From Candidatus Nomurabacteria bacterium (GTDB lineage Bacteria > Patescibacteriota > Minisyncoccia > Phycocordibacterales > UBA918), in NCBI GenBank assembly GCA_023898525.1, contig CP060227.1:893932-957931 (forward strand): a DNA stretch of 64,000 nucleotides. The letters run 5' to 3'. A program made the position numbers and the translations under genes. The notes beneath the pieces are model-generated. The model was given only the letters and a program-made list of their open reading frames with translations. It did not search any database and was not told where the DNA came from. The first letter of the stretch is position 1, and every line of letters begins with the position of its first letter. Of the stretch, positions 1,827-38,960 are shown in pieces.

Positions 1827-4214
1827 ATGACTAACTTCCTGCGTGACAACTTATATCTAATCGCTGTTTTTATCACAGGTGCCTGTGTGTTGGTGGTAGA
1901 AGTTGTAGCGGTTAGAGTATTGTCGCCTTACTATGGGAATACTATTTACACTGTCTCCAGCATTATCAGCGTTATTCTAGCGGCTTTGAGTATTGGTTAT
2001 TATGTGGGAGGAAAATTTGCCGACAAGCATCCATCACCATACTGGTTCTTTCGCATTATTCTAGTTAGTGGTGTGGCTATTTTGGCTTTGCATTTATTGG
2101 GTATGCTGCTACTTCCACTGTTGAGTATCGGTTTGTCGTTGGCTAGTGGACCTTTGGTATCATCTCTCTTACTATTTTTTCTGCCAGCACTTCTTTTAGG
2201 TACCCTTTCACCATATGCCATAAAGCTGCAGAGTCTTAGATTACCAGACCAGGGTATTGGTGGAGTATCGGGAAAAATATTTTTCTGGTCGACGCTGGGG
2301 AGTATTATCGGCAGTCTTCTGGCTGGATTTGTTTTAATTCCGAAATTTGGTATTGATCATATTTTTATTGGTACTGGTTTGGTTCTATTTTGTCTTGGTT
2401 TAATACCATTAATATCTTTGGGTTATGCCCGAGAAAAGGTGGCTGCAGTTTTATTGTCTGTATTTATTATTATCCCAGCTATTATTTTTGGTTCACAGCT
2501 GTTTAGCGACGGGTTTATATATCAAAAAGATGGTATTTATGAAAAAATTACGATCTATGACGGTGAATATGAAGGTCGTCAGACTAGGTTCTTTCTTCAA
2601 GATAGAAGTGCCTCCGGAGCTATGTTCTTAGATGAAGCTGACCCAACCGATTTAGTTTTTAACTACACAAAGTATTATGACTTATACAAATTATTTAAAC
2701 CGGAACTAAAAAACGCGTTAATTATTGGCGGTGGGGCTTATTCAATACCAAAAGCTTTACTTTATGAGGCTCCAGCGGTCAATGTTGATGTGGCTGAAAT
2801 TGAACCAGCTTTGTTTGAATTGGCTAAGGAATATTTTGGGCTGGACGACAACCCTCGCTTAACTACTTATAGTGAAGATGGTCGAAGACTTCTTTTTGAT
2901 AGTAATAAGAAATATGATTTGATTTTTAGTGACGTGTATTATTCACTATATTCAATTCCTGCCCACTTTACGACGCAGGAATTTTTTACAATTGCCAAAG
3001 ACCGTATGTCTGAAAATGGAGTATTTATGGCAAATTTGATTGGTAGCTTATCAAGACAACAGCCGTCGTTAATTTTCTCAGAAATTAGAACCTTTCAAAC
3101 TGTATTTCCTAATAGTTATTTTTTTGCAACTACTGACTCCGTAAGTATCGGGGTTCAAAATATTATAATGGTTGGTGTAAATGGTGATAAGAACTTGGAT
3201 TGGAAGCAGGAGGGTGTTGAGACTGTCTATAATTACAGCGACTTGTCAGATAAGATTATAAACCTAGACCGCTTTGATTTATCAAAGTATACGATTATGA
3301 CCGATAATTATGCGCCGGTCGAATACCTGACTACTGCAGTCCTGAAAAGAGCTGGAGACGAAGATGGTTTAGTCGACGGTGAGGAAGTATTAGCTTTGAT
3401 CAAAGAACAGCTAGACTACGGCCCTCGTTATATTGGGTCATCGGGACACGATGAAGTTGAGAAAATGATCCTGGCTGAGCTTGGTGAACACACTGACAAG
3501 ATTTTGGCTCAGACTTGGGATTACGTTGGTTCTGATCAGAAAGAATATGAGCTTAAGAATATTATTGGGCAACTTAATCCAGATTCGAAGAAACGTATCA
3601 TTTTAGGATCCCATTATGATAGTAAGCGTTTGGCTGATAAAGATCTGTTTCATCCTGAGGCTCCGGTACCTGGAGCTAATGACTCGGCTTCAGGGGTGGG
3701 GGTTTTGCTCGAGTTGGCAAGGTTGCTAAATAATGCTTCCACTACAGTCGGAATAGATTTTGTTTTGTTTGATGGGGAAGAGGGTGATCCTTGGCAGGAT
3801 GGTGATTACCAGGACTGGAAGCCTCTTGGCTCTACTTATTTTGCTGACAACCTTGAGGCTGTCTATGCTGAAGAGTCTTTACCAAAAATGTCTATCGTAC
3901 TGGATATGGTGTGTGATAGCGATCTTAATATACATAGAGAAGGGTTGTCTATGAAATACGCTCCGAAGGAGACTAATAAATTTTGGCAATTGGCTAATAA
4001 TCTAAGTCCTGGTGTATTTGTAGATAAGATGGAACTGGATGTCTATGATGACCACGTACCTTTAAATCTGGCTGGAATTCCAAGTGTTTTGTTGATTGAT
4101 TACCATTTTCCTTATCATCACACAACTAAAGATACTTTAGATAAATGTAGCGCTGGAAGTCTAGAAACGGTAACCGAAGCAGTGCTTACTTTTGTGCGGA
4201 GTTTGGAGGAGTAA
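1827..4214 (+). CDS. Fusion protein: N-terminal polytopic membrane domain plus spermidine-synthase-like domain, C-terminal M28 family (aminopeptidase) domain
   Basis: About 6 TM helices at the N-terminus, then a spermidine synthase-like Rossmann region (LIIGGGAYSIPKALLYE..VDVAEIEP). The C-terminal part carries M28 peptidase signatures (ILGSHYDS, GANDSASGVGVLLELAR, FVLFDGEEG). Confidence 0.6.
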   Translation: MTNFLRDNLYLIAVFITGACVLVVEVVAVRVLSPYYGNTIYTVSSIISVILAALSIGYYVGGKFADKHPSPYWFFRIILVSGVAILALHLLGMLLLPLLSIGLSLASGPLVSSLLLFFLPALLLGTLSPYAIKLQSLRLPDQGIGGVSGKIFFWSTLGSIIGSLLAGFVLIPKFGIDHIFIGTGLVLFCLGLIPLISLGYAREKVAAVLLSVFIIIPAIIFGSQLFSDGFIYQKDGIYEKITIYDGEYEGRQTRFFLQDRSASGAMFLDEADPTDLVFNYTKYYDLYKLFKPELKNALIIGGGAYSIPKALLYEAPAVNVDVAEIEPALFELAKEYFGLDDNPRLTTYSEDGRRLLFDSNKKYDLIFSDVYYSLYSIPAHFTTQEFFTIAKDRMSENGVFMANLIGSLSRQQPSLIFSEIRTFQTVFPNSYFFATTDSVSIGVQNIIMVGVNGDKNLDWKQEGVETVYNYSDLSDKIINLDRFDLSKYTIMTDNYAPVEYLTTAVLKRAGDEDGLVDGEEVLALIKEQLDYGPRYIGSSGHDEVEKMILAELGEHTDKILAQTWDYVGSDQKEYELKNIIGQLNPDSKKRIILGSHYDSKRLADKDLFHPEAPVPGANDSASGVGVLLELARLLNNASTTVGIDFVLFDGEEGDPWQDGDYQDWKPLGSTYFADNLEAVYAEESLPKMSIVLDMVCDSDLNIHREGLSMKYAPKETNKFWQLANNLSPGVFVDKMELDVYDDHVPLNLAGIPSVLLIDYHFPYHHTTKDTLDKCSAGSLETVTEAVLTFVRSLEE

Positions 4215-4587
4215 TTTTACAGACTTTGCGCCTGCCTCAGACACCAGAAACTAGCTAAACGCTAGTTTACTCTGGTGCCTTCGGCAGGAACCCTCTCCGA
4301 GCCGGGGAAACTGTCGTGCCGTCACACATTCAGTTTCCCTTCGATTCCTGACAAAAGCAAAACGGTTTGCTTTCTCCGAAGGCACATTTAAAAAGCGTTT
4401 TTTTGGCGCAGGTTACTAATTCGCTGACGCTCATAAGTACCTGCTGCCCCAGCTCGCCTAATTTTACGCTAGGAAAGGCGCAAAATGTATGGCTCCGCTT
4501 CACAAACAAGCACGAAAGCAAAGCAGTTTGCTTTCTAAAACAAAAAAGCTTATCCGTCCGAATAAGCTTTTTTGTTTTACTTGTTTG

Positions 4588-4660
4588 TGCCTTCGGCAGG
4601 AATCGAACCCACATTTCCTCCTTAGGACGGAGTAGTTCTATCCATTGAACTACGAAGGCA
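4588..4660 (-). tRNA. tRNA-Arg (anticodon CCT)
   Basis: Reverse complement TGCCTTCGTAGTTCAATGGATAGAACTACTCCGTCCTAAGGAGGAAATGTGGGTTCGATTCCTGCCGAAGGCA folds as a cloverleaf (7-bp acceptor, D arm AGTT/AACT, anticodon loop GTCCTAA, T arm GTGGG/TTCGATT/CCTGC). No CCA is encoded. Confidence 0.8.
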
Positions 4661-5116: not shown

Positions 5117-5189
5117 GCTTGGGTAGCTCAGTTGGTAGAGCGCTTCCCTGAAGAGGAAGATGTCGTCGGTTCGAGCCCGACCCCAAGCA
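5117..5189 (+). tRNA. tRNA-Phe (anticodon GAA)
   Basis: GCTTGGGTAGCTCAGTTGGTAGAGCGCTTCCCTGAAGAGGAAGATGTCGTCGGTTCGAGCCCGACCCCAAGCA forms a canonical cloverleaf with anticodon loop CTGAAGA. Confidence 0.9.
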
Positions 5190-5242
5190 CTGGTATATAA
5201 AAAGTCTCTATATAGAGACTTTTTATATACCAGTGCTTGGGG
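5181..5242. repeat. 62-nt perfect palindrome that incorporates the 3' acceptor strand of tRNA-Phe
   Basis: ccccaagcactggtatataaaaagtctctat | atagagactttttatataccagtgcttgggg; the arms are exact reverse complements. Confidence 0.85.
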
Positions 5243-13154: not shown

Positions 13155-13311
13155 GAAGGTGTCCGATACAGGACTTGAACATTACATGTTCAGTACAGGT
13201 TGTCGATATTTTGGTCCAGGTATTCCCAAAATATCTGACTAACCTTTTCAAGTCCTGGGGCCAAAAGTAAAACTTTTCCTGGTAAAAAACCAGGAAATCT
13301 TTCACTTTGTG

Positions 13312-13384
13312 TCCGATACAGGACTTGAACCTGTGACCTCTACAATGTCAATGTAGCGCTCTACCAGCTGAGCTAACCGGACTT
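13312..13384 (-). tRNA. tRNA-Val (anticodon GAC)
   Basis: Reverse complement GTCCGGTTAGCTCAGCTGGTAGAGCGCTACATTGACATTGTAGAGGTCACAGGTTCAAGTCCTGTATCGGACA forms a cloverleaf with anticodon loop TTGACAT. Confidence 0.85.
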
Positions 13385-16468: not shown

Positions 16469-16670
16469 TGCGGAAGCGGAGGGATTCGTCCCAGAATCAC
16501 GGCTATTTTATTTCGCTTCACTCATAAAATAAGCTCGTGTTCTTGGACGGCTGCTCGCATGTTTACTCGTTTTTAAATACTCGTAAACATAAGCTGCGCA
16601 GCTTCGAATCCCTCACGTAAGCCAAGAAGTTGGCTTACTCGCTTCCGCAGTTTCCACTACGTTACAACTG

Positions 16671-16759
16671 CGGAAGCGGAGGGATTCGAACCCTCGATGC
16701 GGGGTTGCCGCATACGCGATTTCGAGTCGCGCGCCTTCAACCAACTCAGCCACGCTTCC
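16671..16759 (-). tRNA. tRNA-Ser (anticodon CGA), class II with long variable arm
   Basis: Reverse complement GGAAGCGTGGCTGAGTTGGTTGAAGGCGCGCGACTCGAAATCGCGTATGCGGCAACCCCGCATCGAGGGTTCGAATCCCTCCGCTTCCG; anticodon loop CTCGAAA, long variable stem-loop. Confidence 0.85.
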
Positions 16760-29310: not shown

Positions 29311-29865
29311 CTTTACCCCGCATGCTTGTCATCGGGGGAAACACTGTCATACTAAACAGTAATGAAAGGTAAACCACAACATATCAAAAAACCACACAAC
29401 AAAACTCTGTTCATCTATCATCTGGTATGCCCAGTAAAATACAGAAGAGATGTATTTACACCACCAATATCAAAAACATTTAAAAACTTATGTTTGGAAT
29501 TTGGTCCAGCTTACGAGATATACTTTCTTGAAATAGGAATAGACGAAGATCATGTACACTTTTTAATACAAACAATTCCAAACATACGTTTCTCTGATAC
29601 GGTAAAGAAAATAAAAAGCATCACCTCCAATCATCTCTTTAAAATCCACCCTGAACTAAAAATAAAACTCTGGGGAGGAAAGTTCTGGACTGAAGGTTAT
29701 TATGCAAATACAGTGGGTAATGCCAGTATGGATATTATTACCAATTACGTTAAAAACCAAGGTTATCCCGAATACCAACAGCTACACTCCGCACCAGTTC
29801 AGACTTCACTGTTTACTACCTAGTCCAACGCCGATACCCCGCATGCTTGTCATCGGGGTAGTTCA
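29311..29865 (+). mobile_element. IS200/IS605-family (IS200-like, tnpA-only) insertion sequence with subterminal hairpins
   Basis: The same imperfect palindrome ccccgcatgcttgtcatcgggg occurs at both ends (29315-29338 and 29837-29858). The internal gene is a Y1 HUH transposase. Confidence 0.6.
29362..29823 (+). CDS. tnpA: IS200-like Y1 (HUH) transposase TnpA
   Basis: YHLVCPVKYRR, HVHFLIQ (HxH) and WGGKFWTEGYYANTVG signatures. Confidence 0.8.
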   Translation: MKGKPQHIKKPHNKTLFIYHLVCPVKYRRDVFTPPISKTFKNLCLEFGPAYEIYFLEIGIDEDHVHFLIQTIPNIRFSDTVKKIKSITSNHLFKIHPELKIKLWGGKFWTEGYYANTVGNASMDIITNYVKNQGYPEYQQLHSAPVQTSLFTT

Positions 29866-30060: not shown

Positions 30061-30499
30061 TAAAAGTCAAAGGTTTATTTCAATAGTTCGATTCCCGGTA
30101 GGGTTCAACCATTATTTTCAGTTGCTGCAACTTTTATACCCATAACCCAAAACACAACATCGCCCTTAAAATAAGGGCAATGTTGTGTTTTGGGTGACAA
30201 TTTGCACTGGTGGCAAGTTATCTAGTCGTTGTGAACCATACCGAGCCACATCTCGAACTTTTGTTGCAAAATCCAGTAATAGCTCGAAAAAGATATTTAA
30301 ACTTATACATGACAAGGAACCAGCTGGTAATGAATAGGAGAAACAAACTACTTAACACTATTTATGAATCTTTATACATACTCTCAAAAAATGTATAACC
30401 TGGATAGGATGGAGAAGATGCATCAATGGTAATTTCCATCACAACCTCATCGTCCTCTTGACTGCTATATTGTGTATGCTTTGATATACTGATGGTCGT

Positions 30500-31321: not shown

Positions 31322-31510
31322 CATACTAATCAAATGTATAAAAACACTACTCCCTTTACTTTACTGACTCAATCAAGTCTGAATTAGAGTCATATGACTG
31401 GTTCGATTCCCCTTAAGGTATGAAATTTTGAATCAAAATTTGCACTTTTGGTAATCAAAATATGGCTTATTTTAATGTTGGATGGATAGAAATGTTACCA
31501 AAAATAACAT

Positions 31511-31754
31511 TCCTCTCTATGTGATGTATTAGCGCACCGCGCTCTAACTCACTACATCGCGAAGCGGTGAACCAACAACGCGCGGAGCGCGTGGTGATGC
31601 GGACGTGAAGCGTACGCATTCGGGAACCTCTGCGCGCCTCGCTGCCTCGCTCCACTCGGCCCCCAAAACCAAAGAAATTTCCTTACAATCATTTTTTCGG
31701 TGGAGGGGTCTGGGGAGGAGCCGACATAAAAAGGAAAGGATATTTCTTTGGTTT
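31511..31754. repeat. GC-rich long inverted repeat, copy A (about 244 bp), the left boundary of the R-M module
   Basis: Exact reverse complement of 36601-36845 on base-by-base comparison. Confidence 0.9.
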
Positions 31755-32100
31755 GGGATCGCCGCTTCGTCCTCCAAAAAGCTCCGTTTCAGTCTCCATT
31801 TATTTGAGAGTCTTCCACTTCGCTTTTCTCCGTACTCGCGGCGTGCGAGGCGCGCTCCCGTAGCGTACCCGCGTGGTAATTCTAGCGTTCGCTCACCACA
31901 CTCTAGCACCTCCGCACTGCTCGCTCGCTTCGCTCGCGCGAGCTGCTGCGGTGCTTCCGTGTGTGAGCTTGGTGGCTTCGGTTGGGTTCGTGGTTTTCAA
32001 AGTGGTTTGCGCTGACGCGCAAGCAAGTCTGTATGTGCTTGTCCCACCCTCCCAATACGCGCACAAACAACCCCGCCTAGCGTCGGGGTTGTTGCTCCCT

Positions 32101-33720
32101 CTAATTCTTTTTTAGGATTTTTTCCTTTCCGACCAAGTTTAGGATTTTCGGGGAAGCGTCTTTTAGAGAAATCAATGTCAATTTCTTTTTCGCCCGTGTT
32201 ATCCCGACTAAAAATTCACATATTTTATGATCAGTAAACTTCTTGGTGTCCTTATCTAAAATATGTTCATCATCTATTCCTACATAATACACAAAATCCG
32301 CAGAGAGTCCCTTGGAGCTCGTAACAGTAGTTAGCTCAACTTCTATAGCGTCTTTTTTATTTGACTCAAAACCTCTGACAATCTTTGTCAGGATATTTTT
32401 TAGATTAAAAATTTTACTAAATCGTTCTAACTCTGTCTTGCTCAGTTCTTTTTTGCCAGTTTTAACCTTTTTGAAAATATTGATATCTTCTTCTATTTTT
32501 CCTTTTATGCCATCATCTAGACAATTCCATATTTTCTTTTGTTTCTCATTACTTTCATTTATAACCTCCTTCCTTTTTGTCTCATCTAAATACAAGGGTA
32601 AAATCTTCCTAAGAGCCAAATTATCAGTCTTCCTTTTTAGAAGAATTTCGAATACTTCACATAGCTTCCTGTGTTTAATTTTATTTCGCTCCTCGTTAGA
32701 AAACAATTCAACACCAACAACGGTAAATCCTTTTTTCATCAAACCCTCATATACAGTTTGTTTTAGATATGATGGCGTTAAAATCAGTACTCTCTGTTTA
32801 TCTTTGTACTCCTCAAGATCTTCTTCAATCATTTTTGACAATCTGTACGCAAGTTGATTTCCGATTACCGAGGGTACAAAAGTTATTTGTGCATATTTCT
32901 TACTTTCTTCATCTTTGTGTCCCTCTGGATACAAGAACTCCTTTTCCAGTCTTTCGTCCAAACATCCATTTGTTTTTGCATTCCGTATCAAATCATTAGT
33001 AGTCTCTATGATAACTTTTGGACATCTATAACAATAATCCAGCGAAAATCCTTCAGTGTCACCGTCGTTGTATAAACTTCTTATTTGAGATGGCTTTGCC
33101 TGTTTAAAATGGTACAGAGACTGGTCGTCATCACCAACTAAGATCACAGTACTCTGTTTGTTGAGAAATTTTATCAGCTCATACTCCGATTTATTGAAGT
33201 CTTGGAATTCATCAACTAAAATCAGATCGTACGTTGGTATCTTTGACTCATTTTGTTGAAAAAGAAGATTTGCAGCGTAAACAACTGAATTAAATGAATA
33301 TAATTTTCCGTTTGAGCTGTAGAATTCCTTTCTCTGTTTGTAGAACTCTTTTTCGTTATCAGTCAAATCGTTATCATGAAACTTTTTCTCGTAGTTAATT
33401 TTACTGCCGTGAATAAAAGAGTAGTCTTCACTTATATACTTGTCTAAATCCTCATCTAAATCACAATCTTCTTCTTTGACGAGTATGCTTCTGGCGAAAG
33501 CATGTAATGTTGAGACATCAACGTTGGGAAAATCGTTAAACTCCTCAGATAAATCATCAATAAGTTTATTTATAAAAGATAATATAAGTATTTTCTTACC
33601 TTTATATTCCTCTGATTTAATTATAGTCCCAAATGTAAAACTTTTACCGGTTCCAGGTCCAGCTAATCCGACAAACAACTTTTTATCTGACTGTTTTATT
33701 TTTTCTAGAATATCAGTCAT
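32101..33720 (-). CDS. UvrD/Rep-like superfamily-1 helicase
   Basis: Walker A GLAGPGTGKS, Walker B/motif II LILVDEFQD, motif III VGDDDQSLY, and a C-terminal UvrD_C-like region. Confidence 0.7.
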   Translation of the reverse strand: MTDILEKIKQSDKKLFVGLAGPGTGKSFTFGTIIKSEEYKGKKILILSFINKLIDDLSEEFNDFPNVDVSTLHAFARSILVKEEDCDLDEDLDKYISEDYSFIHGSKINYEKKFHDNDLTDNEKEFYKQRKEFYSSNGKLYSFNSVVYAANLLFQQNESKIPTYDLILVDEFQDFNKSEYELIKFLNKQSTVILVGDDDQSLYHFKQAKPSQIRSLYNDGDTEGFSLDYCYRCPKVIIETTNDLIRNAKTNGCLDERLEKEFLYPEGHKDEESKKYAQITFVPSVIGNQLAYRLSKMIEEDLEEYKDKQRVLILTPSYLKQTVYEGLMKKGFTVVGVELFSNEERNKIKHRKLCEVFEILLKRKTDNLALRKILPLYLDETKRKEVINESNEKQKKIWNCLDDGIKGKIEEDINIFKKVKTGKKELSKTELERFSKIFNLKNILTKIVRGFESNKKDAIEVELTTVTSSKGLSADFVYYVGIDDEHILDKDTKKFTDHKICEFLVGITRAKKKLTLISLKDASPKILNLVGKEKILKKN

Positions 33721-33724
33721 GGAT

Positions 33725-34471
33725 TTATTTCTGAAACACGAACAAATGTTCGTGCATTATTAGCAAGAAATTGCTTTCTTTTGATTTGTTAACCCAAAAA
33801 CCAGTCGCTTTGCAGTTGTATTGTCGCTTGATGATGTCTTCCTTGAGATCAAAACCAGCGTTTAGAAAGCGATCCATAACACGATATGCAAGCGGTTGAT
33901 ACATTTTTTGTCGACGGGTGTCACCAATCAGAATCGCACAAAATTTTCCTGGTTTTAAGACGCGGTACAGTTCTTTTGCAACCTTTTCCATTTCGTCGGC
34001 AAATTCTTCAATTCCGTGGATGTTTGAAAGATCTTCGTTAATTTCTCCTTCACTGTATTTGATTATGTCAGCGTAGGGCGGGTGTGTGAGAATAAAATCA
34101 ATGCTCTCATTCTCGGCTTTGACGAGGTTGCGCGCGTCACGTTTTGCCACTTTTTGCCAAGCTTTGTTCTCAACGGGAAACTTCAAACTTTCTTTCGTTC
34201 GCTCCAAGGCAACATCGTTTACATCTGAACAAATGATATTGCGGTTGAGTATTTTTGCTTCAATCGCTGTCGTACCACCACCAATCATTGGATCAAGCAA
34301 AATATCACCCTCGTTGGAGTAACGGAGAATAAGATTGCGCGCGACTTCTGGTGACCAGTTGCCGCGCCAGTCTGACTTATGCGTTGCCCAATTCCCGCGA
34401 CGAGGAAAAGCCCACACCGTCGTGCATTCAAGATCAAATTCATCGGGGTGTAGTTTCATTTCCTTTGCCAT
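33725..34471 (-). CDS. Beta-class N6-adenine/N4-cytosine DNA methyltransferase (DpnA / M2.DpnII-like)
   Basis: Motif order is SAM-binding DPMIGGGTT and then the catalytic THPPY (DPPY-like), as in PF01555 methyltransferases. Confidence 0.75.
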   Translation of the reverse strand: MAKEMKLHPDEFDLECTTVWAFPRRGNWATHKSDWRGNWSPEVARNLILRYSNEGDILLDPMIGGGTTAIEAKILNRNIICSDVNDVALERTKESLKFPVENKAWQKVAKRDARNLVKAENESIDFILTHPPYADIIKYSEGEINEDLSNIHGIEEFADEMEKVAKELYRVLKPGKFCAILIGDTRRQKMYQPLAYRVMDRFLNAGFDLKEDIIKRQYNCKATGFWVNKSKESNFLLIMHEHLFVFQK

Positions 34472-34475
34472 TGTT

Positions 34476-35336
34476 TTACCAAGTTAGTTCATTGAGTACG
34501 TCGTCCTCAAGCATTTTGAGATTAAAAACTTGACCTTTGTTGTGTTCAAAAGTTTCTTCAAGTGGTCGCTTTGTGGTTTCCCAGCCGAGTCCGTCTGTAA
34601 CCCAAACAAAATCAATATCTTGTTTTGTTAGCTCGTCATATAAACTACGGAATTCGCCACACACCGCCTTTAGTTTTGAGCCACCTCCGTTATAGAAGTT
34701 TGTCTCAAACAATTTTAGTTTTTTGGTCTGTGGATTGTATACAGCGAAATCAAAGCTTCGTTCTGATTTATCGACATTTATTTCGTAGCTCCATTTGGCT
34801 TTGATGTCGGTTGCTCGTGCTTGGGCGATGTATTCAAAGCCACGTTTTTCTGAAAAATCTTTGACGTACGATTCCACAATTTCTTCCATGAGTGTTCCTC
34901 CACGGTTTTTTCGTCCGTTGCTATCCAACCCAACCTCGACTCCCATAACATAATCGACAAGATTTTTGATTCCATCTTTTTGGAAAAGGCGAGCAAGCCC
35001 AGATTTTTCGATAAACTCGAAATACTTTTCGGCACCATCTTCTCCGTTGGAGAAATCGAAAAACTCCGAATCTTTGGTGACCTTATCAAAAATCTCAAGT
35101 TTGTTTTCGCGTACTGCTAACAAGACAGGCAACGCTTTTACAATATCAGGATTTGATTCGTAGAGCTTTGCAAATTCTTCCGTTAGATTTTCCTTGCCGA
35201 GCAAGTAATTGAGTTTGTTTAGGGAAATCTCAAGATCAGTGGCGTTTGTGGTAACTTTGTCCCAATTTACAAAATAATCCCATGTTTTTATGGAGCTTTT
35301 GAAACCGTCCACCAGTTCTGTAAATGTTTTGTTCAT
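34476..35336 (-). CDS. DpnII/MboI-family type II restriction endonuclease (GATC-type)
   Basis: Blocks LNYLLGK, IKNLVDYVMGVEVGLDSNGRKNRGG, ETNFYNGGGSKL and FVWVTDGLGW are as I remember them from the DpnII family; the length is 286 aa. Confidence 0.65.
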   Translation of the reverse strand: MNKTFTELVDGFKSSIKTWDYFVNWDKVTTNATDLEISLNKLNYLLGKENLTEEFAKLYESNPDIVKALPVLLAVRENKLEIFDKVTKDSEFFDFSNGEDGAEKYFEFIEKSGLARLFQKDGIKNLVDYVMGVEVGLDSNGRKNRGGTLMEEIVESYVKDFSEKRGFEYIAQARATDIKAKWSYEINVDKSERSFDFAVYNPQTKKLKLFETNFYNGGGSKLKAVCGEFRSLYDELTKQDIDFVWVTDGLGWETTKRPLEETFEHNKGQVFNLKMLEDDVLNELTW

Positions 35337-35341
35337 ATCAT

Positions 35342-36298
35342 TCAGTAATTAGTTACTAATACCTCGCTAATCTTTCCGCGCTTTGCGGCGTTTGAGTTTA
35401 TTGCACGTCCTGCAGCGACTTTCGACACTTTTACGCCTTTGATTCCCGAGTAGAGTTTGTTAATGAAAGGAGTGTCAGAGTTAGAAAGCATGACGTAACA
35501 ACCGCGTTTGTGTAATTCGAAAAATGTATCTCTCAATTCCGCTTGCTCCTTGTCCAAGAATGAATCTGCAGTGTACGAAGTGAAAGACGCCGTCTTGCTC
35601 ACGGGATAGTATGGCGGATCAAAATATACAAAGTCTTCTTTCTTTGCTTTTTTAAGTACCGCTTTGTAGTCTTGGTTTTTAACGGTGACTTTTTGCAATG
35701 CTTTTGACACTTTGCGCAAGTTTTCCTCGTCGCAAATTATAGGGTTTGTATATTTACCAAACGGTACATTGAAACCGCCTTTGCTGTTGACTCGGTACAT
35801 TCCATTGAAACAAGTTCGGTTTAGGAAAATAAAACGTGACGCAACATCAATATCTGACAATGCTTTTGGATCCCTTGCGCGCACTTCAAGGTAATACTCT
35901 TTTTCGTATTTGTGTTTTTTGAGAGATTTAATCAGTGCATCAACGTCATTTTTAATGACGTTATAGGTTACTACAAGTTCGTTGTTTAGATCTGAAAGTT
36001 CTGCTTTTTTTGGGAGAAGATCGAAAAAGACAGCACCTCCACCAACAAACGGTTCAAAGTAAGTATTTGTGACAGGATCAAAATCATCTGGTGGGTATAA
36101 CCCCATATCGCGGAATTGTTGGAGGAGTTGTCTTTTCCCACCAACCCATTTCACAAACGGCTTCGGCTTCTCATTAACAATTCGAGTAGCGTCCTCAAAC
36201 AATCGTGTTTTGTCTGCATTATGGAAAACATGATGCGCGTAGATTTTGTTGATATTTAACTCATGTGCGAGTTTTGTGATTGTTTGTTGCGTAGTCAT
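35342..36298 (-). CDS. Dam-like (alpha-class, D12) N6-adenine DNA methyltransferase (DpnM-like)
   Basis: VKWVGGKRQLL, FEPFVGGGAVFF and DPPYYP motifs. Confidence 0.8.
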   Translation of the reverse strand: MTTQQTITKLAHELNINKIYAHHVFHNADKTRLFEDATRIVNEKPKPFVKWVGGKRQLLQQFRDMGLYPPDDFDPVTNTYFEPFVGGGAVFFDLLPKKAELSDLNNELVVTYNVIKNDVDALIKSLKKHKYEKEYYLEVRARDPKALSDIDVASRFIFLNRTCFNGMYRVNSKGGFNVPFGKYTNPIICDEENLRKVSKALQKVTVKNQDYKAVLKKAKKEDFVYFDPPYYPVSKTASFTSYTADSFLDKEQAELRDTFFELHKRGCYVMLSNSDTPFINKLYSGIKGVKVSKVAAGRAINSNAAKRGKISEVLVTNY

Positions 36299-36302
36299 AA
36301 CT

Positions 36303-36506
36303 TTATTTTAGCAGTTCTGTGGTGCTAACTCCGAGTACCTTAGCTAGTTTGGAAATTGTCTCAAGGGTGGGGTTTGTTTTTCCGTTTTCGATATTGCTGA
36401 CATAACTGCGACTACAACCCATACCGCGCATAACATCACCTTGAGACATCCTTTTCGCTTCGCGAATCCTTTTCAAATTATTGCCGAGTTTTGTGGAATC
36501 ATTCAT
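36303..36506 (-). CDS. XRE-family HTH regulator, probably the controller (C) protein of the R-M operon
   Basis: 67 aa; LKRIREAKRMSQGDVMRGMGCSRSYVSNIENG is a classic XRE HTH. It is the first gene of the co-oriented cluster. Confidence 0.65.
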   Translation of the reverse strand: MNDSTKLGNNLKRIREAKRMSQGDVMRGMGCSRSYVSNIENGKTNPTLETISKLAKVLGVSTTELLK

Positions 36507-36600
36507 TCACACAATTATACCCAACTCTTACATTATACACGACTATTATATTTTAGTATAATAGGGTAATGGTGGAGAAAATGATTTTTAGGGACTCATT

Positions 36601-36845
36601 GCGGCGATCCCAAACCAAAGAAATATCCTTTCCTTTTTATGTCGGCTCCTCCCCAGACCCCTCCACCGAAAAAATGATTGTAAGGAAATTTCTTTGGTTT
36701 TGGGGGCCGAGTGGAGCGAGGCAGCGAGGCGCGCAGAGGTTCCCGAATGCGTACGCTTCACGTCCGCATCACCACGCGCTCCGCGCGTTGTTGGTTCACC
36801 GCTTCGCGATGTAGTGAGTTAGAGCGCGGTGCGCTAATACATCAC
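36601..36845. repeat. GC-rich long inverted repeat, copy A' (the partner of 31511-31754)
   Basis: See copy A. Confidence 0.9.
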
Positions 36846-36954
36846 CAATCGAAACAAACTCGGGAGCAAGGCCGCCTGCGGCGGCTATGGGGGCAATATG
36901 GCGGCGGCGTGCCGCCGCGCCCTGGGCAAAAGCAGCCTTTGTTTCTGCCACGCA
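36842..36954. repeat. GC-rich inverted repeat, copy B (about 113 bp), immediately upstream of the recombinase start
   Basis: Exact reverse complement of 38424-38536. Confidence 0.9.
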
Positions 36955-36986
36955 CTGCGTAATCCCAAAGTGAAACCCAGTACATT

Positions 36987-38594
36987 ATGAAAGAACTCAA
37001 ACCAAAATATGTTCTCTACGCTCGCAAGAGTACGGAAGATGATGATAAACAAGTAATGAGTATTGAAGCTCAGTTAGTTGAGTTGCATGAGTTTGCGCGT
37101 AGAGAACAACTTGAAATCCTATCGGAGTTTCAAGAGTCAAAAAGCGCAAAGACGCCCGGGCGTGAGACGTTTGGTGAGATGATGGCGTTTATTGAAAATC
37201 ATAACGAGCCACTTGGTATTCTCGCGTGGCACCCCGATCGTCTCGCTCGCAATTCGATAGACGGTGGGCGTATCGTGTATGCAGTGGACACAGGGAGTAT
37301 CGCGTCTTTGCGCTTTCCGACCTTTTGGTTTGAGCCAACGCCGCAAGGAAAGTTCATGTTGCAAGTGGCGTTCGGTCAGTCGAAATATTTTTCGGATAAC
37401 TTAGTAGAAAACGTGAAGCGTGGAATGCGCCAAAAACTTCGCCGTGGTGAATGGTTGACCAAAGCCCCGTTTGGGTATGTGAACAATCCAAAGACTCGCA
37501 ATATCGAACCGCATCCTGTGTATTCAAAGATTGTGGTGCGGGGCTTTGAAGAATATGCCAAAGGCACATACACCATAGAATCATTGGCGAAGTTTTTGGC
37601 TGACCTCGGTTTGGAAACCAAGAACCGAACACCACTTGGCAAAGCTTCCATTGTGCGGATGCTTTCTAACCGAGCGTATATCGGATTTATCAAATACAAA
37701 GATGAATGGCACGAAGGAAGCTTTGCGCCGATTATCACTCCCACACTGTTTGAAGCAGTCCAAAAGGTGCTCGAAACAAAACGGCGGCCTCGGGTACAGA
37801 AAGAACCACATAATTTTCCACTCACGCAGTTTGCCGAGTGCGGTGAGTGTGGCGGCATGATAACTGCTCAGTACACTACTAACAGGCATGGTACGAAGTA
37901 TGCGTATTATCGCTGTACTCAAAAGAAAGGATCATGCCGCCAACCGTACGTGGCCACCGCTTTGTTGGAGACACAAGTGAATGACATGCTTCAAACAGTT
38001 GCACTGCCGTCAGTGGAGATAGACAAGATTGATGGGTGGATTGTACGCTGGGAGCGTGAACAAACCGCTGATGACGGCAGTGCTGCCCGAGACCTTAAAA
38101 ATGAGATTGCGAGCGTGCAAGAGAAGCTTGATCGCTTAGTTTCTCTGTACCTTGATGGCGATATAGAGCGCGATAGTTATCTCGACCGCAAAGACAAGCT
38201 GATGCGCGAAAAAACGACGCTCGCTGAGAAATTGAATGGTCTCGGGCGTGGGAGTGATAATCGGCTCCAACCCTTGCGGCGTTTCGTTTTGTCTTTAAGA
38301 GAAGCCGTGAATTTGATAGAGAGCGGTGAGATGCACGAAAAACGTGACTTTCTGAAAAAGCTCGGCTCTAACCCTTCTCTTAAAGACAAAACACTTTCAT
38401 TGCACTGGGATGCACTTTGGGATGGCGTGGCAGAAACAAAGGCTGCTTTTGCCCAGGGCGCGGCGGCACGCCGCCGCCATATTGCCCCCATAGCCGCCGC
38501 AGGCGGCCTTGCTCCCGAGTTTGTTTCGATTGGTGACCCTACGGGGAATCGAACCCCGATTTGCAGGATGAGAACCTGCTGTCCTAGCCGTTAG
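36987..38594 (+). CDS. Large serine recombinase (resolvase domain + recombinase domain + zinc ribbon + coiled coil). The C-terminal ~55 aa are encoded by repeat B' and the tRNA-Glu 3' region and are probably not native
   Basis: N-terminal YARKSTEDDD..S (catalytic Ser region), Cys-rich CGECGG...YYRC zinc ribbon, then a coiled-coil. The tail is Ala/Gly/Arg-rich and comes from GC-rich repeat DNA. Confidence 0.8.
   Translation: MKELKPKYVLYARKSTEDDDKQVMSIEAQLVELHEFARREQLEILSEFQESKSAKTPGRETFGEMMAFIENHNEPLGILAWHPDRLARNSIDGGRIVYAVDTGSIASLRFPTFWFEPTPQGKFMLQVAFGQSKYFSDNLVENVKRGMRQKLRRGEWLTKAPFGYVNNPKTRNIEPHPVYSKIVVRGFEEYAKGTYTIESLAKFLADLGLETKNRTPLGKASIVRMLSNRAYIGFIKYKDEWHEGSFAPIITPTLFEAVQKVLETKRRPRVQKEPHNFPLTQFAECGECGGMITAQYTTNRHGTKYAYYRCTQKKGSCRQPYVATALLETQVNDMLQTVALPSVEIDKIDGWIVRWEREQTADDGSAARDLKNEIASVQEKLDRLVSLYLDGDIERDSYLDRKDKLMREKTTLAEKLNGLGRGSDNRLQPLRRFVLSLREAVNLIESGEMHEKRDFLKKLGSNPSLKDKTLSLHWDALWDGVAETKAAFAQGAAARRRHIAPIAAAGGLAPEFVSIGDPTGNRTPICRMRTCCPSR
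38424..38536. repeat. GC-rich inverted repeat, copy B' (the partner of 36842-36954)
   Basis: See copy B; it ends within the CCA end of tRNA-Glu. Confidence 0.9.
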
Positions 38595-38605
38595 ACGATA
38601 GGGCC
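38531..38605 (-). tRNA. tRNA-Glu (anticodon CTC) with an encoded CCA
   Basis: Reverse complement GGCCCTATCGTCTAACGGCTAGGACAGCAGGTTCTCATCCTGCAAATCGGGGTTCGATTCCCCGTAGGGTCACCA forms a cloverleaf with anticodon loop TTCTCAT. Confidence 0.8.
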
Positions 38606-38770
38606 ATGTTGTTTAATTTTGCTTTTTTGGTCAATATTGGTTTTGTGGTAACCGGTTCTCATTGCTGAGAACTTCTCCTATCACCTCGTAAACATCGGTG
38701 ATTTCTTCCTGACGTCAGAACCGGATAAAAAGTTAATCACTTTTTATTATCCTAGCCGTTAGACTAAAAA

Positions 38771-38960
38771 TGTCTGGGAGACATTTTTAGTTGGGTGCAA
38801 TACTTAACTTGTAGTATCTACCAGGTGCTCTACTAATAATGGTAAAGAATACATCTGGGACACAATTTGGTTGAGTGAAATACTTAACCAAAATACCACA
38901 TGTATGATTTTCAGACTTACTGTCTGGGAGATATTTTTTTGGTTGAGTGCAGCTACTGAC
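38771..38960. repeat. Three degenerate ~40-nt direct repeats at 70-80 bp spacing
   Basis: tgtctgggagacatttttagttgggtgcaatacttaac / catctgggacacaatttggttgagtgaaatacttaacc / tgtctgggagatatttttttggttgagtgcagctactgac. Confidence 0.5.

Follow-up and report, generated by a model that had tools for sequence, protein, structure and literature searches.

A probable two-module integrative element with a large serine recombinase at a tRNA-Glu gene of Candidatus Nomurabacteria

What occupies the place between the 3′ end of a tRNA-Glu(CTC) gene and its former downstream flank in a genome of Candidatus Nomurabacteria (Patescibacteria, the candidate phyla radiation, CPR), and how could it have come there? 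Within the 64,000 nucleotides analysed (the window), a sequence-only reading had placed at 31511-38609 a GC-rich, horizontally acquired defence island with a large serine recombinase (LSR). Gene identities were assigned by Pfam and PADLOC profile matches and the tRNA by Rfam; all named parts were in place, and domain searches confirmed the protein families proposed, DpnII for instance with E=2e-91. The segment itself is real, but its limits were corrected to 31521-38536 (7,016 bp, from the first base of repeat arm X to the last base of repeat arm Z′), the tRNA being host sequence. It lies between the tRNA-Glu 3′ end and a flank with a hairpin, and contains a 535-aa LSR, an XRE regulator, a DpnII-type restriction-modification (R-M) set with two methylases and a GajB-like SF1 helicase. 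The original observation is thus confirmed and its interpretation as a whole partly supported: quite probably, the segment is one integrated copy of a small LSR-moved integrative element of Patescibacteria. High GC content is confined to non-coding blocks (55-65%) and the LSR gene (47.5% in its core). These blocks are as GC-rich as had been supposed (X and X′ 55.5%, Z and Z′ 65%, the spacer at 31766-32100 58%), so that a foreign composition can be ascribed to the repeats and the LSR gene, but not to the cargo genes, which at 33-43% are host-like or lower, and the term “GC-rich island” goes too far for a segment with 42.8% overall against 40.6% outside it.

A cargo module (X-cargo-X′) and a recombinase module (Z-LSR-Z′) make up the element, and each stands within its own perfect inverted repeat. 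The long inverted repeats anticipated from the letters measure 245 nt for X/X′, which encloses the cargo, and 112 nt for Z/Z′, which encloses the LSR gene; both are 100% complementary, they abut with a 4-nt overlap, and their lengths and identity are far beyond chance. The distal arm X (31521-31765), a conserved module across loci, opens with GTGA (31521-31524), a copy of the core TCAC/GTGA that is common to all three junctions and also forms the tRNA end. It is followed inside the cargo module by the GC-rich non-coding spacer, which has a hairpin just past the helicase stop codon and homologous sequence of which adjoins X arms in four related loci (L101, L119, L061, L064). The proximal arm X′ (36601-36845) ends in about 30 nt (T*, about 36812-36841) that imitate a tRNA T-arm, reading GTTAGAGCG here and GGTTCGnGC in the family version; deeper in this arm come the palindrome ACGCGCTCCGCGCGT, which is conserved, and a mini inverted repeat of 22 nt. 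The left arm Z (36842-36984, + strand), perfect over 36842-36953 and 87% identical over 36962-36984, begins with the core TCAC, contains two hairpins with compensatory changes and doubles as the LSR 5′ leader, ending 2 nt before ATG. The right arm Z′ (38401-38536, perfect over 38425-38536) terminates in the core GTGA (38533-38536) common to the tRNA 3′ end.

The core has the same orientation at both outer junctions and is inverted at the middle one. When junctions were compared, the reverse complement of J1 (host|X) proved to consist of the X′ end, TCAC and then the host flank. Judged by such comparison, J1 reads as an attR-type junction, J2 (X′|Z) as an intact, inverted attP-like site and J3 (Z′|tRNA) as an attL-type junction, and this attR/attP/attL pattern with shared X′ end, core and Z in J2 and the reverse complements of J1 and J3 was found in 19 further loci with both repeats. 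In other words, the att sites are short, with a small common core, and the outer junctions are hybrids of the middle site with tRNA and flank. The X′·Z junction is conserved across loci as a single contiguous unit. The first base of the core changes with the tRNA: it is T with Glu (TCAC), C with Ala (CCAC) and G with Leu and Phe (GCAC). GTTCG stands 24 nt from Z within X′, as measured in 46 loci, and 18 nt from it within the tRNA, as measured in 56. The arrangement of attL, inverted attP and attR, which is the hallmark of a large family, had been overlooked by the sequence-only reading. Outside the element, at a distance of 100 nt, a tRNA-like 20-mer occurs in inverted orientation (31400-31419).

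The target, host tRNA-Glu(CTC) (38531-38605, − strand; Rfam tRNA, 59.5 bits), is itself host sequence except for the final CA of its encoded CCA (38531-38532), which the element alone contributes; the core TCAC at 38533-38536 is common to both. The element abuts its end ...GGGTCAC, and the gene's former downstream flank is found on the other side. Among the window tRNAs only this occupied one encodes CCA; the four others end in NCAC or, for Ser, CCGC, and directly behind three of these comes a terminator-like hairpin with a T-run. By eye, a hairpin and then a T-run also make up the flank past distal X in six related loci (L010, L029, L037, L042, L050, L079). The direct repeat of tens of nucleotides typical of a classical tRNA island is absent, the far end repeating only the 4-nt core. 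It had been proposed to look for strains in which tRNA-Glu is followed by trxB; this is the wrong side, since trxB is located 5′ of the tRNA and the element at its 3′ end, so that in an empty site ...GGGTCAC would be continued by what now reads leftwards from 31520, a hairpin and then a 273-aa ORF. Searches for an empty tRNA-Glu site, an excised circle or a circular contig found none, same-strain unitigs contain the filled site only, and a relative (L081) carries a different family member at the syntenic tRNA-Glu. Consequently, movement of the element is inferred, not observed, and the idea of an LSR-driven defence island at tRNA-Glu is backed by the junctions and by more than 100 related loci, but by neither an empty site nor a circle.

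The LSR gene (36987-38594, + strand) encodes Resolvase, Recombinase and Zn_ribbon_recom domains: the catalytic domain matches PF00239 over residues 9-156 (E=5e-20) and the C-terminal part PF07508 (E=1e-12) and the zinc ribbon PF13408 (E=7e-9). The protein resembles the C-terminal domain of A118 integrase (4KIS, E=3e-8) and SPbeta SprA. The YARKS motif keeps Y11, R13 and S15 without change in 26 homologs, other residues of the catalytic domain are invariant too, and by these conserved positions and the A118/SPbeta resemblance the enzyme looks active. The conserved protein stops near residue 479, while the ORF continues through Z′ and the att core and, as had been noticed before, runs into tRNA-Glu, its stop lying within the antisense tRNA (64-nt antisense overlap). 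In 106 of 107 loci this frame has no stop codon within Z′; the other two frames are open in 54 and 36. The 5′ leader is complementary to the gene's own 3′ end, a family-wide property with a median reach of 6 nt from ATG. Upstream, between the HTH gene and X′, lies an AT-rich divergent control region (36507-36600, 30% GC) with a sigma-70-like TATACA-17-TATAAT at 36534-36562 on the + strand, which is a pattern match only; a pattern search for the strict extended −10 gave 18 of 73 loci and nothing in this window. No recombination directionality factor was identified for the element. The LSR ORF is without annotation in both deposited assemblies of the source genome.

All cargo genes are read from the − strand. 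Next to the spacer is the 539-aa SF1 UvrD-like helicase (32101-33720; UvrD-helicase E=5e-22, AAA_19, UvrD_C), followed by an N6_N4 (beta-class) DNA methyltransferase, the second R-M methylase (33725-34471; N6_N4_Mtase E=6e-26, MTase_II E=8e-90), the DpnII-family type II endonuclease (34476-35336; PF04556 E=1.9e-91 over its full length, REase_II E=5e-96) and a D12-class Dam-like N6-adenine methyltransferase (35342-36298; MethyltransfD12 E=8e-66, MTase_II E=1e-99). The endonuclease and adenine methylases are contiguous and co-oriented, as in a DpnII-type system, and the profile matches identify this cargo as a two-methylase R-M system of DpnII type, accompanied by an SF1 helicase. The same combination of endonuclease, D12 Dam-like and N6_N4 methylases would place it with GATC systems of DpnII/MboI type, such as the pneumococcal dpnM-dpnA-dpnB cassette, where DpnII endonuclease is accompanied by two methylases; the order in the window differs, being methylase-endonuclease-methylase and then the co-oriented helicase. 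The best GajB model match of the helicase has E=8e-28; Gabija, which consists of GajA, an OLD-family ATPase-nuclease, and the helicase GajB, was nevertheless rejected, there being no GajA-like gene in the element. The 67-aa XRE-family HTH regulator (36303-36506, − strand; HTH_3 E=8e-19) had been taken for the controller protein of the R-M set. It is the first gene beside X′ and diverges from the LSR gene; of 43 loci, at least 16, with cargo unrelated to that here, have a homolog in this place, and its 90%-identity cluster spans many CPR contigs. Probably it is a recurrent component of the element and is not R-M-specific.

The layout of the window element recurs in most of 164 related loci, collected from independent Patescibacteria assemblies. 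More than 7,000 LSR homologs were found at E<=1e-10, and GTDB species genomes yielded at least 562 stretches of the family, metagenomes at least 577. Z/Z′ is present in 107 of 125 complete loci and a tRNA 3′ end abuts Z′ in 86 of the 125; an abutting X/X′ was registered in 25 of the 49 loci with at least 3 kb upstream. Elements are about 2.3-9.5 kb long, the repeats bracketing their modules 100-430 nt; arms are without mismatch in the outer 100 nt in 54 of 121 loci and only 76-95% identical in some. About 20 tRNA species serve as targets, and a genome or contig may hold multiple family members at different tRNAs. In almost every locus the LSR gene points towards the tRNA; cargo is highly diverse, 51 of 57 cargo ORFs diverging from the LSR gene. 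The departures from this layout comprise an LSR module between two convergent tRNAs (L039, L099, L019), a flipped LSR module with the T* motif of X on the far side (L015) and probably three more flipped ones (L044, L120, L159), a small inverted segment inside X (L061, L049, L101), LSR-cargo-LSR arrays of three modules (L001, L144), about ten loci with long upstream flanks and no second X copy, and near-identical X modules (94% over 146 nt) combined with different Z/LSR types at tRNA-Glu (L010) and tRNA-Ala (L012).

These data can be accommodated if attB is composed of the tRNA end and flank, and attP of the X′ end and Z. The LSR would recognise the tRNA T-arm (GGTTCGA) and the T-arm mimic that ends X′ and lies 6 bp further from the core, and strand exchange within NCAC would produce attL (tRNA·Z) and attR (X′·flank). 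Besides these two att halves, a complete inverted attP copy (X′·Z) would be retained by the element just ahead of the LSR gene, and it would be because of this full copy kept inside that both modules stand within inverted repeats. In the predicted circular form, two unique segments would alternate with two attP regions in inverted orientation, which to our knowledge is unprecedented for serine integrases. What purpose the inverted repeats and the duplicated attP serve we can only infer. Perhaps the internal copy supplies the LSR gene with a promoter, an operator and a structured leader, and LSR synthesis might be limited by base pairing between this leader and the complementary 3′-terminal part of the mRNA. 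The intact internal attP might also recombine with other tRNA genes and thereby give rise to rearrangements; the modules between two tRNAs and the flip in L015 were counted in favour of such activity. Some loci call for more than simple integration: those without a second X copy are to be accounted for by decay or rearrangement, the two three-module arrays need extra events, and near-perfect identity of the arms requires gene conversion or recent formation as candidates.

Could the LSR instead be a resident switch, flipping its own gene and/or the cargo in a shufflon-like manner to vary expression? Long inverted repeats surround both segments, and a flip would leave the LSR gene whole, since only 2 nt separate the left arm from the start codon and the right arm starts within the 3′ coding region; the module of L015, the three probable cases and the inverted X segments of L061, L049 and L101 may be cited as its traces. 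Yet one orientation is strongly preferred, with the LSR facing the tRNA nearly always and 51 of 57 cargo ORFs divergent, a flip would not alter the cargo's own promoter context, the junctions show insertion between tRNA and flank, and about 20 different tRNAs are occupied with unrelated cargo, so that we hold such a switch to be unlikely. Quite unlikely, too, is a pair of side-by-side transposon-like elements with own terminal repeats, moved separately by the LSR as stacked cassettes. Each module is exactly delimited by its own repeat, three-module arrays exist and near-identical X modules are paired with different Z/LSR types, which favours this reading, but the cores around each module are inverted (GTGA...TCAC) and have no palindromic dinucleotide. 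Serine recombinases cut with a 2-nt stagger, and recombination between such cores gives inversion, not excision; moreover, the X′·Z junction is kept contiguous across loci.

A decayed prophage or phage satellite with a serine integrase by chance is highly improbable: an integrase beside a tRNA and defence genes, common in prophage cargo, would suit it, but phage structural and replication genes are absent here and in related loci, elements of about 2.3-9.5 kb are small, and the LSR family is nearly absent from 2.9 million viral contigs (one match, 41% identity) and from plasmids (identity below 30%). Scarcely credible is an artefact of assembly or polishing of this long-read metagenome-assembled genome. 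Identity of 100% over 245 and 112 nt is unusual and the LSR ORF is unannotated in either deposited assembly; against this, unrelated projects and assemblers produced the same architecture in more than 100 loci, some with arms only 76-95% identical, and an independent short-read unitig of the same strain crosses from host sequence into X by 30 nt with 100% identity.

The element comes closest to the serine integrases of phages and integrative elements (A118/LI, SPbeta SprA, Bxb1, phiC31, TnpX, CcrAB), with which it shares domain order, short att sites agreeing in a small core, attL and attR of hybrid nature, and an outer half-site motif nearer the centre in attB than in attP; this rule of P/B half-site spacing reportedly comes from the work of Rutherford and Van Duyne. 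It differs in targeting the extreme 3′ end of tRNA genes, which, as far as we know, serine integrases rarely use, in keeping a second complete, inverted attP and in having the att core inside the recombinase ORF. A Hin/Gin-type switch, with its small serine invertase, inverted sites of about 26 bp and both orientations in populations, was rejected in view of the 535-aa LSR, 112-245 nt repeats and one dominant orientation across loci. The integron, which has the tyrosine recombinase IntI, attI and cassette attC sites, was rejected as well: the recombinase here is a serine one, the cargo is bounded by an exact inverted copy of the recombinase-adjacent site and not by attC, and the divergent recombinase/cargo layout is an analogy only. 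Two unique segments separated by two inverted repeats are also found in the yeast 2-micron plasmid and plastid genomes, and the predicted X-cargo-X′·Z-LSR-Z′ circle would have two copies of an inverted repeat of about 357 nt containing the recombinase target. The 2-micron plasmid, however, uses the tyrosine recombinase Flp, replicates autonomously and flips freely, whereas the window element has no evident replication function and one isomer dominates, so that the likeness is topological only.

The cassette chromosome elements of staphylococci and enterococci (SCCmec/ECC) are likewise inserted by LSRs at the 3′ end of a conserved gene, rlmH, and resemble the window element in variable cargo, stackable target-adjacent modules and cargo-only units (PMC6222049); their sites are short and all direct, while the window element has an inverted internal site and long, perfect repeats, and the family has tRNA targets and CPR hosts. 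Tycheposons and tRNA islands are also small cargo- or defence-carrying elements at tRNAs with integrase clades specialised by tRNA, but tycheposons have tyrosine recombinases in 474 of 501 cases and direct partial tRNA copies as flanks (bioRxiv 10.1101/2020.12.28.424599). The window element, with its LSR, only a 4-nt core duplicated, no partial-tRNA direct repeat and modules flanked by inverted repeats, was rejected as a tycheposon. No prior description of the element family was found in the literature, which agrees with the earlier impression that its architecture is undescribed. Apparently, the family is very common and not yet described, and, like tycheposons, it may be one of the main ways in which streamlined genomes acquire genes.

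The segment at 31521–38536, lying at the 3′ end of tRNA-Glu(CTC) (38531–38605, minus strand), is composed of two modules bracketed by perfect inverted repeats. Repeat X (31521–31765, 245 nt, paired with X′ at 36601–36845) encloses the cargo, and repeat Z (36842–36953, 112 nt, paired with Z′ at 38425–38536) encloses the gene of a large serine recombinase, LSR (535 aa, 36987–38594, plus strand; Resolvase, Recombinase and Zn_ribbon_recom domains), whose reading frame overlaps tRNA-Glu(CTC) in antisense orientation by 64 nt. An 87% extension of Z/Z′ (36962–36984 versus 38401–38423) reaches 2 nt short of the ATG codon. The cargo genes, all on the minus strand and identified with Pfam and PADLOC, encode an SF1 UvrD-like helicase of 539 residues (32101–33720; best match in the defence library GajB), an N6_N4 methylase (33725–34471), a DpnII endonuclease (34476–35336, E=2e-91), a D12 Dam-like methylase (35342–36298) and a 67-aa XRE HTH protein (36303–36506). 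This cargo amounts to a complete type II restriction-modification (R-M) set that has two methylases, together with a helicase; the R-M system is of the ordinary DpnII type. All proteins expected by the sequence-only reading in its GC-rich defence island (helicase, both methylases, DpnII endonuclease, controller protein and LSR) are indeed present at 31.5–38.6 kb, but the compositional part of that claim holds only for the non-coding blocks (55–65% GC) and the LSR core (47.5%), not for the cargo genes (33–43%); the whole segment has 42.8% GC versus 40.6% in the remainder of the window. A 335-nt non-coding stretch between X and the helicase stop codon (31766–32100) contains 58% GC. Its pieces reappear beside X arms in four related loci from other Patescibacteria assemblies (L101, L119, L061 and L064), and one of 88 nt matches positions 2954–3041 of locus L001 at 91% identity.

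Four bases, TCAC, belong to both X′ and Z. They are also found as GTGA at the start of X (31521) and at the end of Z′ (38533–38536), where they cover the final two bases of the acceptor stem, the discriminator A and the C that opens the tRNA CCA. In one reading orientation the three junctions are tRNA·TCAC·Z, X′-end·TCAC·Z and X′-end·TCAC·host flank, and judged by this arrangement they stand as putative attL, attP and attR, respectively, relative to attB composed of tRNA-end·flank. What is unusual is that an attP copy is kept intact within the element and is inverted relative to both outer junctions. The same pattern of sharing between three junctions was registered in 19 other loci with both repeats. 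The first base of the core tracks the tRNA: the core is TCAC for Glu, CCAC for Ala and GCAC for Leu and Phe.

Homologs of LSR number more than 7,000 at E≤1e-10, and their named sources are Parcubacteria-group lineages of CPR. In scans with an alignment of 26 members, GTDB species genomes gave at least 562 stretches and JGI metagenomes at least 577; 164 loci were analysed with scripts. Repeat Z/Z′ was found in 107 of the 125 loci that contain the complete gene with its two flanks (median length 131 nt, median identity 97%, minimum 76%), and in 86 loci its right arm extends by a few bases into the 3′ end of a tRNA gene on the opposite strand. Targets include, among others, tRNAs for Glu, Ala, Leu, Pro, Phe, Ser, Trp, Arg, Ile, Val, Gly, Gln and Asn. 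The second repeat, X/X′, abuts Z in 25 of the 49 loci having at least 3 kb upstream (median 242 nt, median identity 99.3%) and encloses 0.6–7.7 kb. About ten loci have no second X within 5–10 kb. In 54 of 121 loci the arms have no mismatch in the outer 100 nt, and in others they have decayed to 76%; gene conversion and recent formation are candidate causes of the frequent identity.

Across tRNA classes X′ is a conserved module of about 250–370 nt. Its consensus RNA fold (14 loci) contained only a 6-bp invariant hairpin without covariation, and X′ therefore resembles a collection of DNA motifs rather than a structured RNA. The invariant blocks are GCGTACG, the palindrome ACGCGC-TCC-GCGCGT, a second NCACCAC motif and a 22-nt mini inverted repeat, copies of which are situated in the window within 31663–31757 (X) and 36609–36703 (X′). 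The C-rich spacer of about 50 nt in the X mini repeat has the opposite orientation in L061, L049 and L101 as compared to the window, so that a short stretch of the repeat module is inverted there. The final ~30 nt of X′ (designated T*) resemble a tRNA T-arm and are conserved in every target class (consensus aaaaaGGTTCGnGCAAAnnnTAnnATnnCA). The distance from GTTCG to Z is 24 nt in X′ (46 loci) versus 18 nt in the real tRNA (56 loci). It is known from the studies of A118/LI integrase that in att sites of serine integrases the outer motif lies farther from the centre in attP than in attB, by approximately half a helical turn. A matching inverted motif (…CGAAAC…TCGGAA) is present at the start of Z, and in our own reading of the junctions the dyad centre would coincide with the first two bases of the core. 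Residues of the LSR catalytic domain are invariant in the alignment of 26 members, and the protein aligns with the C-terminal domain of A118 integrase and with SprA of SPbeta; as far as its sequence can tell, it is a bona fide large serine recombinase. Based on the T-arm spacing, the dyad, the invariant residues and the likeness to A118 and SPbeta proteins, we infer that integration proceeds by canonical attP × attB chemistry.

Excision module by module is rejected on the orientation of the cores: since TCAC has no palindromic dinucleotide, recombination of the middle site with an outer one can only invert the DNA between them, and modules that are not separately excisable speak against two stacked transposons. 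An assembly artefact is excluded because the repeats recur in independent assemblies, their arms are imperfect in places, and an independent unitig from the same strain crosses from host DNA into X at 100% identity. The element is best classed with integrative elements of the serine-integrase type, with an apparently undescribed design. All of its 7,016 bp would be expected to excise as a single circle, in which two inverted X′Z regions of ~357 nt would lie between the cargo and the LSR gene, a topology resembling that of the 2-micron plasmid. In almost all loci LSR points towards the tRNA, and of 57 cargo ORFs 51 are divergent from LSR, so that free flipping is unlikely given the dominance of a single isomer. 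In L015, however, the LSR module has the reverse orientation: the tRNA is found at its 5′ side and T* of X at the 3′ side, and the tRNA is likewise 5′ of LSR in L044, L120 and L159. In three more loci (L039, 9786–11610; L099, 9779–11619; L019, 183–2000) the module lies between two convergent tRNAs of the same amino-acid family. All these rare variants would fit activity of the internal attP, whose recombination with a second tRNA gene would give rise to the convergent-tRNA loci, i.e. to a tRNA-to-tRNA rearrangement of the chromosome. Arrays with an LSR module on either side of one cargo, Z1-LSR1-Z1′·X-cargo-X′·Z2-LSR2-Z2′·tRNA, were observed in L001 (5059–15363) and L144 (214–5408) and need additional events. 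The distal LSR of L001 is the closest relative of the window enzyme (91% identity), and a tRNA-Glu-like fragment adjoins its outer arm.

Four other tRNA genes of the window (4587–4659, 5117–5190, 13309–13382 and 16670–16759) are unoccupied, and none of them encodes CCA; three end with NCAC and tRNA-Ser with CCGC. A hairpin followed by a T-run, as read by eye, directly follows three of the four (Arg, Phe and Val). Since these anticodon types (Arg-cct, Phe-gaa, Val-gac and Ser-cga) are all targeted by the family elsewhere, the genes look like free attB sites. CCA is encoded only by tRNA-Glu (one of the five window tRNAs), and its last two bases come from the element alone. Beyond the distal X, a hairpin and T-run resembling by eye a rho-independent terminator were found in at least six loci. 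Because the unoccupied tRNAs lack CCA and three of the four are followed by hairpins, while the last two bases of the tRNA-Glu CCA are supplied by the element, the empty site is predicted to read ...GGGTCAC then ATAGAGAGGAATG..., with the tRNA joined to the hairpin now at 31520–31480; the predicted attB join is ...CCCCGTAGGGTCAC then ATAGAGAGGAATGTTATTTTTGG. The earlier suggestion to look for tRNA-Glu joined directly to trxB addressed the wrong flank, since trxB is on the 5′ side of the tRNA and the element at its 3′ end. Comparison of flanks across loci revealed no filled/empty pair; L081, L006, L072 and L002 have the tRNA-side flank in common but have diverged too far to be decisive. There were no circular contigs among 80 metagenome loci, and no empty site, circle or polymorphism in the loci and host assemblies or unitigs checked. 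Same-strain unitigs L176, L178 and L179 are unbranched at the host–X junction, and unitig breaks inside the tRNA are probably due to tRNA sequence common to other organisms of the sample.

Several other features were noticed around the element. A tRNA-like 3′ fragment, GGTTCGATTCCCCTTAAGGT (31400–31422, plus strand), matching the T-arm and acceptor of tRNA-Glu at 18 of 20 bases, is located 100 nt beyond the left end in inverted orientation relative to tRNA-Glu, and may be a leftover of an older recombination event. In L006 (8157–8492), Z′ is separated from the intact tRNA by a direct 43-nt duplication of the 3′ part of tRNA-Glu and an insert of ~220 nt, which resembles the L072 flank beyond the distal X. 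The gap of 740 nt that separates tRNA-Glu from trxB contains three direct repeats of ~40 nt (TGTCTGGGAGACATTTTTAGTTGGGTGCAATACTTAAC and variants; 38771–38960) spaced by 75–80 nt. A gene of IS200/IS605 Y1 transposase (29362–29823; three protein accessions in the draft assembly) is situated 1.7 kb to the left, with a palindromic hairpin nearby (30140–30200) that gave weak Rfam matches of miRNA type on both strands. The Rfam scan of 30–40 kb with permissive thresholds registered only tRNA.

The conserved part of LSR ends at about residue 479, where perfect Z′ begins, yet the LSR frame stays open across Z′ in 106 of 107 loci (54/107 and 36/107 for the other two frames), and in 102 of 110 loci it terminates within the antisense tRNA or past it; the att core is thereby placed inside the ORF. 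In the integrated form the final 14–20 residues come from the antisense tRNA (...GD then PTGNRTPICRMRTCCPSR), and with Z′ joined to X, in the circle or flipped form, X encodes the tail (...GD then VLAHRALTHYIAKR), which is open for a median of 16 codons (78 loci). Complementarity of the 5′ leader to the 3′ end of its own mRNA extends to a median of 6 nt from ATG, and 27 of 110 loci have it right up to that codon. Read as its reverse complement, the inner part of the repeat gives the codons of the conserved WGELWDF motif. Z contains two hairpins, one scored by alignment fold with compensatory changes at all 6 of 6 pairs, the other co-varying by eye. A core within the ORF combined with such complementarity could act as a built-in switch of direction and dosage, standing in for a separate recombination directionality factor. 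These features may constitute a self-limiting or state-sensing expression device, though we consider it rather improbable that the repeats let the recombinase sense its own integration state. With each module bracketed by inverted repeats, a single-stranded copy, acquired for instance by natural transformation, could fold X/X′ and Z/Z′ into one duplex with a double-stranded attP. A strict extended −10 promoter in T* is only partly supported, the pattern being found in 18 of 73 loci and absent from the window.

The XRE protein had been taken as the R-M controller, and it does match R-M controller-protein models. However, at least 16 of 43 loci, whose cargo is unrelated, encode a homolog of it directly beside X′; L024 and L058, which have no detectable second X, are among them. 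Because of this recurrence it is more likely to be the element's own regulator than a controller dedicated to the R-M set.

The host, by exact protein matches a Candidatus Nomurabacteria bacterium (CPR/Patescibacteria), has a complete genome (1,087,875 bp) and an older draft assembly. The intact 535-aa ORF has a protein record in neither of them: accessions go straight from the HTH protein (USN87651) to TrxB (USN87652), and the draft contig has no gene call in between. Short-read assemblies are broken by the repeats of 100–430 nt immediately upstream of the LSR gene, and many short-read contigs stop there, 50–500 nt before it. In L005, L017, L063, L069 and many others the stop is 50–52 nt upstream of Z or inside X′. 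Such ends suggest that those genomes carry more than one copy of X and that assemblies are systematically broken up by the family. Due to this fragmentation and the missing annotation the family may be under-reported.

Cargo elsewhere includes MazF-like toxins, NUDIX, ADP-ribosyltransferase, RhuM, AAA_15 ATPases and HNH with methylase, as well as seryl-tRNA synthetase, SAM synthetase, nucleotidase, sodium:solute symporters and secreted PKD/beta-helix proteins, and blastp clustering grouped almost no cargo proteins from different loci. Given such variety, the family is a general gene-delivery vehicle and not a defence island only. A scan of viral contigs gave a single distant match and tblastn against plasmids less than 30% identity, which argues against a phage or plasmid link: the family is virtually absent from both. 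The exact LSR protein was absent from a collection of 15 billion proteins, which left no identical contigs for comparison, and full-text search of the literature on serine recombinases at tRNAs in Patescibacteria/CPR found no description of such elements. Specialisation on tRNA 3′ ends, an inverted attP that is kept, long repeats bracketing each module and a core inside the ORF distinguish them from phage serine integrase systems, SCC elements, tycheposons, integrons and Hin-type switches.

For recombinase biology the design is of interest in that an intact inverted attP is kept within the integrated element and the att core is sited within the enzyme's own reading frame. Since the T-arm and NCAC target co-varies legibly with the core base, the family is also a large natural series of serine integrases in which specificity could be studied and engineered. 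Genomes of CPR/Patescibacteria are tiny and, to our knowledge, mostly devoid of CRISPR and poor in recognised mobile elements. With thousands of members, several per genome, about 20 tRNA species as targets, and cargo ranging from R-M systems, toxins and transporters even to aminoacyl-tRNA synthetases, the family may be one of the main routes by which CPR bacteria gain genes and undergo tRNA-to-tRNA rearrangement of the chromosome.
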